NCBI RefSeq assembly: GCF_053078305.1
Contig: NZ_CP166879.1
Direction: 5' to 3' (one strand)
Length of the DNA: 64,000 nt
Numbering within the stretch: position 1 is the first letter of the stretch; every line of letters begins with the position of its first letter. This document shows, piece after piece, positions 1,182-46,139 of this stretch. Position numbers and translations under genes: made by a program. Under the pieces are notes generated by a model, which saw only the letters and a program-made list of their open reading frames with translations, had not been told where the DNA came from and made no database searches.

Positions 1182-3461
1182 ATGGATGACCAGTTAAAAC
1201 AAAGTGCACTTGATTTCCATGAATTTCCAGTTCCAGGGAAAATCCAGGTTTCTCCAACCAAGCCTCTGGCAACGCAGCGCGATCTGGCGCTGGCCTACTC
1301 ACCAGGCGTTGCCGCACCTTGTCTTGAAATCGAAAAAGACCCGTTAAAAGCCTACAAATATACCGCGCGCGGTAACCTGGTGGCGGTGATCTCTAACGGT
1401 ACGGCGGTGCTGGGGTTAGGCAACATTGGCGCGCTGGCAGGCAAACCGGTGATGGAAGGCAAGGGCGTTCTGTTTAAGAAATTCGCCGGGATTGATGTAT
1501 TTGACATTGAAGTTGACGAACTCGACCCGGACAAATTTATTGAAGTTGTCGCCGCGCTCGAACCAACCTTCGGCGGTATCAACCTCGAAGACATTAAAGC
1601 GCCAGAATGTTTCTATATTGAACAGAAACTGCGCGAGCGGATGAATATTCCGGTATTCCACGACGATCAGCACGGCACGGCAATTATCAGCACAGCCGCC
1701 ATCCTCAACGGCTTGCGCGTGGTGGAGAAAAACATCTCTGACGTGCGGATGGTGGTTTCCGGCGCGGGCGCCGCAGCAATCGCCTGTATGAACCTGCTGG
1801 TAGCGCTGGGTCTGCAAAAACATAACATCGTGGTTTGCGATTCAAAAGGCGTTATCTATCAGGGCCGTGAGCCAAACATGGCGGAAACCAAAGCCGCATA
1901 TGCGGTGGTGGATGACGGCAAACGTACCCTCGATGATGTGATTGAAGGCGCGGATATTTTCCTCGGCTGTTCCGGCCCGAAAGTGCTGACCCAGGAAATG
2001 GTGAAGAAAATGGCTCGTGCGCCAATGATCCTGGCGCTGGCGAACCCGGAACCGGAAATTCTGCCGCCGCTGGCGAAAGAAGTGCGTCCGGATGCCATCA
2101 TCTGCACCGGTCGTTCTGACTATCCAAACCAGGTGAACAACGTCCTGTGCTTCCCGTTCATCTTCCGTGGCGCGCTGGACGTTGGCGCAACCGCCATCAA
2201 CGAAGAGATGAAACTGGCGGCGGTACGCGCGATTGCAGAACTGGCCCATGCGGAACAGAGCGAAGTGGTGGCTTCAGCGTATGGCGATCAGGATCTGAGC
2301 TTTGGTCCGGAATACATCATTCCAAAACCGTTTGATCCGCGCTTGATCGTTAAGATCGCTCCTGCGGTCGCGAAAGCGGCGATGGAGTCGGGCGTGGCGA
2401 CGCGTCCGATTGCTGATTTCGACGTCTACATCGACAAGCTGACTGAGTTCGTTTACAAAACCAACCTGTTTATGAAGCCGATTTTCTCCCAGGCTCGCAA
2501 AGCGCCGAAGCGCGTAGTTCTGCCGGAAGGGGAAGAGGCGCGCGTTCTGCATGCCACTCAGGAACTGGTAACGCTGGGACTGGCGAAACCGATCCTTATC
2601 GGTCGTCCGAACGTGATCGAAATGCGCATTCAGAAACTGGGCTTGCAGATCAAAGCGGGCGTTGATTTTGAGATCGTCAATAACGAATCCGATCCGCGCT
2701 TTAAAGAGTACTGGACCGAATACTTCCAGATCATGAAGCGTCGCGGTGTCACTCAGGAACAGGCGCAGCGTGCGCTGATCAGTAACCCGACAGTGATCGG
2801 CGCGATCATGGTTCAGCGTGGGGAAGCCGATGCAATGATCTGCGGTACGGTGGGCGATTATCATGAACATTTTAGCGTGGTGAAAAATGTCTTTGGTTAT
2901 CGCGATGGCGTTCACACCGCAGGTGCAATGAACGCGCTGCTGCTGCCGAGTGGTAACACCTTTATTGCCGATACCTACGTCAATGACGAACCAGACGCAG
3001 AAGAGCTGGCGGAGATCACCTTGATGGCGGCAGAAACTGTCCGTCGTTTTGGTATTGAGCCGCGCGTTGCTCTGTTGTCGCACTCCAACTTTGGTTCTTC
3101 TGACTGCCCGTCGTCGAGCAAAATGCGTCAGGCGCTGGAACTGGTCAGGGAACGTGCGCCAGAACTGATGATTGATGGTGAAATGCACGGCGATGCAGCG
3201 CTGGTGGAAGCGATTCGCAACGACCGTATGCCGGACAGCCCTTTGAAAGGTTCCGCCAATATTCTGGTAATGCCAAACATGGAAGCTGCCCGCATTAGTT
3301 ACAACTTACTGCGCGTTTCCAGCTCGGAAGGTGTGACTGTCGGTCCGGTGCTGATGGGCGTGGCGAAACCGGTTCACGTGTTAACGCCGATCGCATCGGT
3401 ACGTCGTATCGTCAACATGGTGGCGCTGGCCGTGGTTGAAGCGCAAACCCAACCGCTGTAA
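1182..3461 (+). CDS. maeB: NADP-dependent malic enzyme (malic enzyme domain fused to phosphotransacetylase-like domain)
   Basis: 759-aa ORF starting [22 protein letters not shown]; recognised as MaeB family. Confidence 0.97.
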
Positions 3462-3478
3462 TTCTTTTTTAACTCTCA

Positions 3479-3506
3479 CGCTTACCCTGAATATTCAGGG
3501 TAAGCG
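3479..3506. terminator. 28-bp perfect palindrome CGCTTACCCTGAAT|ATTCAGGGTAAGCG downstream of maeB; putative terminator or insulator hairpin
   Basis: Exact reverse-complement symmetry read from sequence; the T-run precedes rather than follows it, so not a canonical intrinsic terminator. Confidence 0.45.
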
Positions 3507-3507
3507 G

Positions 3508-3751
3508 TCCAGCTGCAATATATTAGTAAAGCTTATTACTGAGTTTACGAATAATAAAAAAAGCAATATAAAATATCTCGATATTATTTTATTTATATTC
3601 ATGCGTCGCATATGAAAGTTTATTCATAACAGTAAATATCTCTCCATTCTTAGTGATCTACCTCACCTTTTAAACGCGCTTGCCGAATTTTGTTATTTAC
3701 TCTGACGAAAAATTGTCACGATACACGAAAGTTTTTCACAGGCGGCGACTC
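3508..3751 (+). promoter_or_regulatory. AT-rich promoter and regulatory region of the eut operon (expected EutR-dependent promoter)
   Basis: 244-bp AT-rich non-coding stretch immediately upstream of the first eut gene; exact promoter elements not mapped. Confidence 0.4.
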
Positions 3752-4087
3752 ATGGATAAAGAACGCATCATTCAGGAATTTGTGCCCGGCAAACAGGTCA
3801 CGCTGGCGCATCTCATCGCGCATCCCGGCGAGGAACTGGCGAAGAAAATCGGCGTTCCGGATGCGGGCGCAATTGGCATTATGACGCTAACTCCTGGCGA
3901 AACGGCGATGATCGCCGGTGATTTAGCATTGAAAGCCGCTGATGTGCATATCGGTTTTCTCGACCGCTTCAGTGGTGCATTGGTGATTTATGGCTCGGTG
4001 GGCGCAGTAGAAGAAGCGTTATCACAAACCGTCAGTGGCTTAGGTCGCTTATTAAATTATACGCTTTGTGAAATGACCAAAAGTTAA
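3752..4087 (+). CDS. eutS: ethanolamine microcompartment shell protein EutS (BMC domain)
   Basis: In frame of ORF 3680..4087; start placed at internal ATG 3752 ([15 protein letters not shown]...) giving 111 aa. Confidence 0.9.
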
Positions 4088-4099
4088 TACGAGGCATTC

Positions 4100-4579
4100 A
4101 TGAAACGAATTGCGTTTGTGGGTACCGTCGGGGCAGGGAAAACAACGTTATTTAATGCGTTGCAGGGGAATTATACCCTCGCCAGAAAAACACAGGCCGT
4201 GGAATTTAATGATAAGGGCGATATTGATACGCCGGGTGAATATTTTAGCCATCCCCGCTGGTATCACGCCTTAATTACCACGCTACAGGATGTGGACATG
4301 CTGATCTATGTCCACGGCGCGAATGACCCGGAAAGTCGGTTGCCTGCCGGGTTGCTGGATATTGGCGTCAGCAAACGGCAAATCGCCGTCATCAGTAAAA
4401 CGGACATGCCGGATGCTGACGTCGCCGCAACGCGAAAGTTATTGCTTGAGACGGGCTTCGAGGAGCCGATTTTCGAGCTAAACAGCCACGACCCGCAAAG
4501 CGTGCAGCAACTGGTGGATTATCTGGCATCTCTCACCAAACAGGAGGAAGCAGGTGAAAAAACTCATCACAGCGAATGA
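4100..4579 (+). CDS. eutP: EutP, P-loop NTPase / acetate kinase of the eut operon
   Basis: 159 aa, Walker A motif GTVGAGKTT. Confidence 0.93.
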   Translation: MKRIAFVGTVGAGKTTLFNALQGNYTLARKTQAVEFNDKGDIDTPGEYFSHPRWYHALITTLQDVDMLIYVHGANDPESRLPAGLLDIGVSKRQIAVISKTDMPDADVAATRKLLLETGFEEPIFELNSHDPQSVQQLVDYLASLTKQEEAGEKTHHSE

Positions 4580-35224: not shown

Positions 35225-35252
35225 AAAAATGGCGCCGATGGGCGCCATTTTT
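35224..35252. terminator. bidirectional intrinsic terminator between convergent pdxK and crr
   Basis: AAAAAAATGGCGCC-GATG-GGCGCCATTTTT. Confidence 0.8.
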
Positions 35253-38179: not shown

Positions 38180-38207
38180 AAAAAAGCACCTAAAAAGGTG
38201 CTTTTTT
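38180..38207. terminator. intrinsic terminator downstream of cysK (bidirectional form)
   Basis: AAAAAAGCACC-TAAAAA-GGTGCTTTTTT. Confidence 0.8.
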
Positions 38208-46023: not shown

Positions 46024-46112
46024 TGTTCAGTCCTCGTCACTGTACGAGGTAATATCGGTAGAAGAACAAGGAACTTGAGAAGAAAAATCAATCTTACAAA
46101 TCGCAGATAGCA

Positions 46113-46139
46113 AAAAAGCGCCTTTAGGGCGCTTTTTTA
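46113..46139 (-). terminator. intrinsic terminator of the valU-valX-valY-lysV tRNA operon
   Basis: AAAAAAGCGCC-TTTA-GGGCGCTTTTTT immediately 3' of lysV. Confidence 0.85.

Follow-up and report, generated by a model that had tools for sequence, protein, structure and literature searches.

In E. coli, transcripts terminated by Rho were found to have their steady-state ends just after stable, terminator-sized stem-loops that carry neither a U-tail nor an A-tract (Dar and Sorek, 2018, NAR 46:6797; PMC6061677). Termination itself takes place diffusely further downstream, after which these stem-loops shield the transcript against PNPase and RNase II (PMC6061677). In the same study, switching between terminator types through a change in U content was proposed, and possible "transition states" were described, in which Rho serves as a backup for an intrinsic terminator of low efficiency (PMC6061677). 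The element analyzed here is a palindrome at the E. coli maeB-eutS junction, located in a stretch of 64,000 nucleotides that is referred to as the window. It is likened to the described class by its sequence; the class itself is characterized by mapped 3′ ends just after the stem, by more read-through under bicyclomycin and by longer tails in pnp or rnb mutants. The stem-loop following maeB is stable, of terminator size, positioned just 3′ of the CDS and followed by U-poor sequence. No A-tract precedes it, and the spacer upstream is U-rich. Unlike in the described class, no immediate downstream enrichment of C over G was seen within the first 80 nt (3507-3586, GC 25%), in which the C/G ratio is about 1.0, whereas it is about 2 further on (approximately 3590-3720). 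The element is probably the 3′-end stem-loop of the maeB mRNA, a decayed intrinsic terminator that would now mainly define and protect the 3′ end, with Rho or leakage acting downstream.

The palindrome comprises positions 3479-3506 of the window (CGCTTACCCTGAATATTCAGGGTAAGCG) and is composed of the halves CGCTTACCCTGAAT and ATTCAGGGTAAGCG, located at 3479-3492 and 3493-3506, respectively. Both arms are 14 nt in length and 100% complementary with a spacer of 0 nt, which confirms the exact 28-bp palindrome of the preliminary description. Its placement 18 nt after the maeB stop was also correct, as 17 nt lie in between and the first base of the palindrome is the 18th. It represents the longest inverted repeat of the 64-kb window. 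No loop-free palindrome obtained in 30 first-order Markov simulations had an arm longer than 9 nt, compared to 14 nt in the window. A search with the 28-mer allowing up to 3 mismatches identified the palindrome itself as the sole match in the window and returned none in 100 shuffles.

A 38-nt query centred on the palindrome matched 5,409 of the 5,426 complete E. coli genomes perfectly or near-perfectly. Two places were reported per matching genome, which correspond to one site read on both strands and hence to a single copy. The perfect palindrome was present in approximately 4,050 E. coli records and a version with one mismatch in approximately 1,200. In the one-mismatch type, found for example in K-12, the final G is replaced by an A, by which the outermost pair is lost and a 26-bp core is left. 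A dispersed repeat was rejected, since there is one site per E. coli genome and one match in the window. Like REP/BIME elements, the maeB palindrome is intergenic, can be folded in the mRNA and could block 3′ exonucleases, whereas it is single-copy per genome, contains no REP-like sequence and belongs to no repeat family.

In the K-12 RefSeq record, no feature is annotated on the palindrome. A scan with Rfam 15 (window 3000-4200, E up to 10) revealed no family at the gathering score; the sole hit, a miRNA model with 21.5 bits compared to a gathering score of 86 (E = 0.6), is at chance level. A scan for consensus promoters and terminators called nothing at the palindrome. The features of the junction are listed in Table 1.

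Table 1. Features of the maeB-eutS junction in the window and the basis of their assignment.
Feature	Position	Strand	Basis
maeB CDS (NADP-dependent malic enzyme), TAA at 3459-3461	1182..3461	+	ORF list and RefSeq annotation of E. coli records with the same or nearly the same sequence
17-nt U-rich spacer TTCTTTTTTAACTCTCA from stop codon to hairpin	3462..3478	+	Sequence, comparison of 80 loci
Palindrome/hairpin: 5′ arm 3479-3490, loop AUAU 3491-3494, 3′ arm 3495-3506	3479..3506	+	Fold, conservation
Tail GTCCAGCTG, degraded U-tract, rare and evidently derived allele	3507..3515	+	Allele comparison
AT-rich, Escherichia-specific spacer, GC 17-26%	3516..3648	n/a	Comparison with other genera
Conserved box GTGATCTACCTCAC, GTGA-N6-TCAC, CRP-like half-sites	3653..3666	n/a	Cross-genus conservation 5′ of eutS
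eutS CDS, gene 1 of the eut operon, ATG at 3752	3752..4087	+	Translation and RefSeq annotation

As RNA, the palindrome folds into a stem of 12 bp and a loop of 4 nt at −20.4 kcal/mol, and the fold of its 101-nt context had a z-score of −3.65. The absence of a central loop, as stated in the preliminary description, thus holds for the DNA but not for the RNA, in which AUAU serves as the loop. These dimensions are in the range of stable stem-loops 3′ of a stop codon (stem of about 5-14 bp, loop of 3-8 nt). A self-complementary loop of 4 nt is expected in 1 of 16 hairpins. In the related Escherichia lineages the loop is not self-complementary; it varies between AAUAUU, GAUUAUU, AGUAAUU and UUUAUU and the element is 28 or 29 nt in length, with the stem being kept (Table 2).

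Table 2. Hairpin and tail alleles after maeB. The RNA:DNA hybrid ΔG of the first 8 nt of the tail was calculated with nearest-neighbour parameters after Sugimoto et al. (1995); absolute values are approximate and serve for relative comparison only.
Locus or group	Hairpin	Tail	First 8 nt	U in first 8 nt	Hybrid ΔG (kcal/mol)
Other genera, canonical terminators			e.g. UUUUUAUU	7	−1.8 to −2.5
L010 (E. whittamii)	CGCTTACCCTGAGTAATTCGGGGTAAGCG	ATTTTTATA	AUUUUUAU	6	−3.2
L008	CGCTTACTCTGGATTATTCGGGGTAAGCG	GTTTTATTG	GUUUUAUU	6	−3.4
L124/L131/L160 group	CGCTTACCCTGTTTATTCGGGGTAAGCG	GTTTTGCTG	GUUUUGCU	5	−6.9
Most E. coli, L009, L128	Perfect palindrome	Varies	GUUUAGCU (most E. coli)	4	−7.5
L110/L166	K-12-type hairpin with C7 to T	GTTTAGCTG			
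Window	Perfect palindrome	GTCCAGCTG	GUCCAGCU	2	−11.0

For the analysis of the same position in other genera, the C-terminus of MaeB was used to fetch 80 species-representative loci of the Enterobacteriaceae, and the best hairpin after the stop codon was scored for each locus. The scoring covered the loci preceding L079, which has too little sequence downstream of maeB. Among the non-Escherichia, all those in which maeB is followed by eutS (Citrobacter, the K. oxytoca group, Pseudocitrobacter and Yokenella) have a canonical terminator that starts 18-20 nt past the stop, typically GGCGCGGGTTTCTCCCGCGCC followed by TTTTTATTTT. Salmonella subspecies have a GC-rich hairpin with a T-tract at the same offset after maeB. 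The terminators of the other genera had T-tract scores between 4.5 and 5.7 and terminator scores d of +33 to +58, whereas the Escherichia hairpins, with an offset of 17 nt and a stem of at least the same strength (−16 to −20 kcal/mol), had T-tract scores of 0.6-2.65 and d values below 0 (−36 for the window); the formula follows d'Aubenton-Carafa et al. (1990) and allows relative comparison only, with the orthologous terminators as internal positive controls.

The 17-nt spacer preceding the Escherichia hairpin resembles the AT-rich pre-terminator spacer at the equivalent position in the other genera. In terms of slot, strand and stable hairpin, the element agrees with the canonical intrinsic terminators of Citrobacter, Klebsiella, Salmonella and Yokenella, and 5-6 U's are retained after the hairpin in the sister Escherichia species. 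Unlike these terminators, the window has a tail without the defining U-tract, and the stem sequence of the Escherichia hairpin is unrelated to the stems of the other genera. Since the offset after the maeB stop matches that in other genera, the palindrome evidently sits at the site of the maeB terminator, whose stem appears to have been exchanged for another sequence in the Escherichia lineage.

Within Escherichia, further alleles were gathered by a metagenome scan with an Escherichia-specific anchor within the maeB CDS, in which the hairpin itself was not selected on. Among five divergent Escherichia lineages, which are 3-10% diverged in maeB, the stem differed at 4 of 110 positions, compared to 23 of 89 in the adjacent spacer (3462-3478; Fisher p = 5e-6) and 25 of 45 in the tail (p = 8e-13 versus the stem). 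The stem is therefore about 7-fold better conserved than the adjacent spacer, which indicates that it is under purifying selection.

On the plus strand, 95.2% of the cells were paired and 4 pairs were changed on one side, all of which remained G.U. On the minus strand the same substitutions appear as A.C mismatches, resulting in 90.5% paired cells with 5 pairs broken and 1 kept. All substitutions in the interior of the stem preserve the pairing on the maeB-sense strand. The fold energies differ accordingly between the strands, with −16.3 (plus) versus −7.5 kcal/mol (minus) for L008 and −19.6 versus −15.6 kcal/mol for L010. Among the Escherichia alleles no double compensatory substitutions were found, and the covariation consists of one-sided wobble changes alone. 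Of the wobble changes 4 favour the plus strand and 1, the terminal pair of K-12, the minus strand, an asymmetry that is not significant by itself. The substitutions are consistent with a hairpin formed by the maeB-sense RNA, for which the 4-to-1 asymmetry is suggestive.

The tail behaves differently from the stem. It differs in almost every lineage, and a short initial U-run is present in all of them except the window. At least 3 tail alleles were identified within E. coli; most E. coli have GTTTAGCTG, and the other Escherichia have GTTTTATTG or ATTTTTATA. The allele of the window, in which TT is replaced by CC, is rare: with a 60-nt query that includes it, 113 records reached an identity of 99% or more. 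It is evidently derived. A U-tract of about 7-8 nt, mostly U, is absent from the window, partly present in the major E. coli allele (4 of 8) and present in L008 and L010 (6 of 8). Taken together, the alleles indicate that the U-tract decays while the terminator hairpin is kept. The preliminary description had noted that no U-tract follows the palindrome, which is correct for the window strain with its tail GTCCAGCTG and agrees with the silent terminator scan. Its further reading, that this is not a textbook intrinsic terminator, applies to this strain as well, but it overlooks the apparent descent from such a terminator and that the tail is a rare, derived one.

Downstream of the hairpin, the organization of Escherichia differs from that of other genera. 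About 140 bp of AT-rich DNA are added between the hairpin and the conserved box, whereas in Citrobacter and Klebsiella no such sequence is present and the terminator abuts the box. In other genera the box TTAGTGATCYACYTCACC directly follows the terminator, and the same box is located at 3650-3667 of the window. The box GTGATCTACCTCAC was found 5′ of eutS in all eutS-bearing loci but two (L038 and L043), which vary in the last half-site. This GTGA-N6-TCAC box is probably the actual protein-binding element of the eut promoter region. CRP is a candidate ligand by likeness to its consensus TGTGA-N6-TCACA. The AT-rich spacer (window 3507-3650) contains internal direct repeats at 3542-3561/3617-3636 and 3571-3588/3634-3651. 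In L009 (E. coli SCPM-O-B-8794), the identity to the window is approximately 90% over maeB-eutS and the spacer between the two genes is 236 nt in length, compared to 290 nt in the window. Based on this identity and the shorter spacer, L009 probably belongs to another Escherichia species.

In 84 of the 5,426 complete E. coli genomes, a two-gene island of 2.2 kb on the minus strand is located between the palindrome and the eut promoter. It is also present in several metagenome contigs. Its coordinates are 3852-5838 in L147 and 1553-4316 in L169. The island is absent from the window; its site lies between 3515 and 3619, where it replaces about 100 bp of the AT-rich spacer. Its genes, which converge on maeB, encode a GT1/GT4 glycosyltransferase and a protein of the GINT1_N family (Pfam PF24793, E = 4e-35). 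The GINT1-like gene takes its last codon and TAA from the complement of GTTTAGCTG, 2 nt off the palindrome, and the tail holding this stop codon is also present in island-free E. coli. According to the RefSeq annotation, the convergent stop codons are 47 nt apart in the island strains. A degraded copy of the island was found in a divergent lineage (L160, L131). A tblastn search of plasmids for homologues of the island yielded distant matches only (identity of 42% or less) from sphingomonads and rhizobia, which are uninformative on an arrival of the palindrome together with the island. The local alignment of the AT-rich spacer with the whole downstream part of L147, island included, scored 25, compared to 23 ± 2.8 for shuffled sequences, and thus gave no indication that the spacer is a decayed remnant of the island.

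In the island strains the symmetric hairpin can, judging from its fold, cap both convergent transcripts. This raises the question of a strand-symmetric boundary element without a U-tract, serving both strands where the GT/GINT1-like island converges on maeB, which we consider very improbable as the function of the palindrome. As in the bidirectional terminators of convergent genes, the palindrome lies between convergent stops in the 84 island-bearing genomes and folds equally on both strands; unlike these, it has no A-tract upstream and no U-tract downstream in either direction. Textbook bidirectional terminators with A-tract, GC hairpin and T-tract occur elsewhere in the window, at 38180-38207, 35225-35252 and 46112-46138 (e.g. 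AAAAAAGCACCTAAAAAGGTGCTTTTTT). If the palindrome were such a boundary, its symmetry in E. coli (U-A, versus U.G in the sister lineages) would have been selected for an equal fold in both transcripts. It would then act as a 3′-end stabiliser of convergent genes or as a terminator by polymerase collision, and could possibly be a favoured breakpoint for cassette exchange and IS insertion.

Rearrangements seem to cluster at the maeB-eutS junction, making it a small hot spot. In strain LCP30S3_I3 (L170:2389-2397, 3726-3734), ISVsa5 of the IS10 family is inserted in the left arm, at a position equivalent to window 3479-3487, with a target duplication of 9 bp (CGCTTACCC). As a result, maeB is now located 1.3 kb from the intact copy of the hairpin. 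The target duplication is one mismatch away from NGCTNAGCN, the hot-spot consensus of IS10. Among the metagenome contigs, L107 carries the end of an inserted IS1 some 20 nt 3′ of the palindrome (about window 3527), and L154 has a 15-nt deletion in the tail region (about window 3512-3526).

An alternative explanation for the palindrome is a weak Rho-independent terminator that is still working in the window strain, in which the very stable 12-bp hairpin forces termination in spite of the poor tail, perhaps together with NusA, NusG or a pause. Both its position and its ancestry speak for a terminator, the stem energy ranks among the strongest, the proximal UUU is kept in most E. coli, and transition states with Rho as backup were considered possible by Dar and Sorek (PMC6061677). 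In the window, however, the tail has 2 U's in 8 nt and a hybrid ΔG of −11 compared to about −2.5 kcal/mol for canonical terminators, as a relative comparison, while the consensus scan is silent and the terminator score falls far below those of the orthologues. Termination of this kind is thus unlikely in the window strain. The same drift of the U-tract, with its at least 3 tail alleles in E. coli, could also be read as the neutral decay of a functionless relic, left by the former terminator or by the 3′ end of the convergent island gene. The loss of the outermost pair in the K-12 group would fit this, as would the IS10-family insertion in the left arm of one strain, which has no obvious consequence. 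A relic is nevertheless quite improbable in view of the stem, which has diverged far less than the spacer next to it and is perfect or nearly so in almost all complete genomes, and the interior substitutions of which all keep the sense-strand pairing.

An action at the DNA level, with the eut promoter being insulated or regulated by an operator for a dimeric protein or by a cruciform, would account for a perfect 28-bp dyad without spacer in most E. coli and for its location upstream of the eut promoter region. Yet the promoter box common to the genera is located about 170 bp downstream, and the other genera with this box have no palindrome. In L008, L010 and the L160 group the arms are asymmetric and the centres non-palindromic; the centre spacing of the sister lineages shifts from 28 to 29 nt with the RNA pairing being kept. 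Moreover, the palindrome stays with maeB when the 2.2-kb island splits off the eut promoter, and the E. coli genomes have no second similar site. An element of this type is extremely unlikely, and the site for an insulating dimeric protein suggested in the preliminary description found no support, given that the dyad is broken in sister lineages and the genera sharing the box have an unrelated hairpin. Similarities to the box consensus sequences of ArgR, the Cra/LacI family and LexA were dismissed on account of a mismatch in the spacing of the half-sites.

The 3′-end stem-loop of the maeB mRNA therefore remains the preferred explanation. The hairpin would be the functional successor, in Escherichia, of the Rho-independent terminator of maeB, the U-tract of which would have eroded stepwise from GUUUUAUU or AUUUUUAU in the Escherichia other than E. 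coli, through GUUUAGCU in the majority of E. coli, to GUCCAGCU in the window. In most Escherichia, the hairpin would act as a weak-to-moderate intrinsic terminator. In the window strain, the hairpin alone is expected to terminate little or nothing, since its tail is without a U-tract. The polymerase would come to a halt only beyond the hairpin, in the AT-rich spacer that is not translated and presumably through Rho, and the hairpin would then set the 3′ end of the mature maeB mRNA and shield it from the 3′-to-5′ exonucleases PNPase and RNase II. The structure, its position, the single copy, the strand-biased conservation and the decay of the tail were observed, whereas we infer the protection from exonucleases, the involvement of Rho and the low efficiency of intrinsic termination. 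Of the functions suggested in the preliminary description, a stabiliser of the transcript 3′ end is the option best supported by the sense-strand conservation of the stem, the terminator position and the missing U-tract.

A Rho-assisted termination signal, also suggested in the preliminary description, would be compatible with the observations. With regard to Rho, neither a bias of C over G nor an evident rut site was found in the first 80 nt immediately 3′ of the hairpin. The C/G ratio increases to about 2 at approximately +90 to +200 (approximately 3590-3720), a weakly rut-like composition. In K-12 (NC_000913.3), the tail (about window 3507-3515) corresponds to about 2,576,045-2,576,053 on the minus strand. 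Neither maeB nor eutS nor talA is listed among the curated Term-seq 3′ ends and Rho regions of Adams et al. (2021), and none of the listed coordinates falls within K-12 2,576,030-2,576,069, which is weak evidence either way as these lists are thresholded. Similarly, the supplements of TERMITe (2025) have no entry for the maeB site, which may be explained by expression thresholds, and full-text searches on maeB yielded no relevant transcript 3′-end or Rho evidence. In uninduced K-12 W3110, Eut proteins were barely or not detectable, whereas MaeB was quantifiable and unchanged (PMC11334477). This is indirect functional evidence of insulation, in that eut evidently gains no productive expression from maeB, although the study does not place the end of the maeB transcript.

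The maeB stem-loop is most likely an ordinary element of a described class, of which this copy is apparently unannotated. An annotation of terminators that requires a U-tract will miss the 3′ end of maeB. The locus would illustrate, in a clean natural case, how an intrinsic terminator sheds its U-tract stepwise, from other genera to the genus Escherichia and to a rare E. coli allele, with the hairpin remaining under selection. As in the proposal of Dar and Sorek, the series leads from an intrinsic to a U-poor form by the loss of uridines. The natural tails ATTTTT, GTTTT, GTTTA and GTCCA form a series in which the need of a strong hairpin for a U-tract may be followed, and this series lends support to the proposed drift of terminators from Rho-independent to Rho-dependent or protective types and back.
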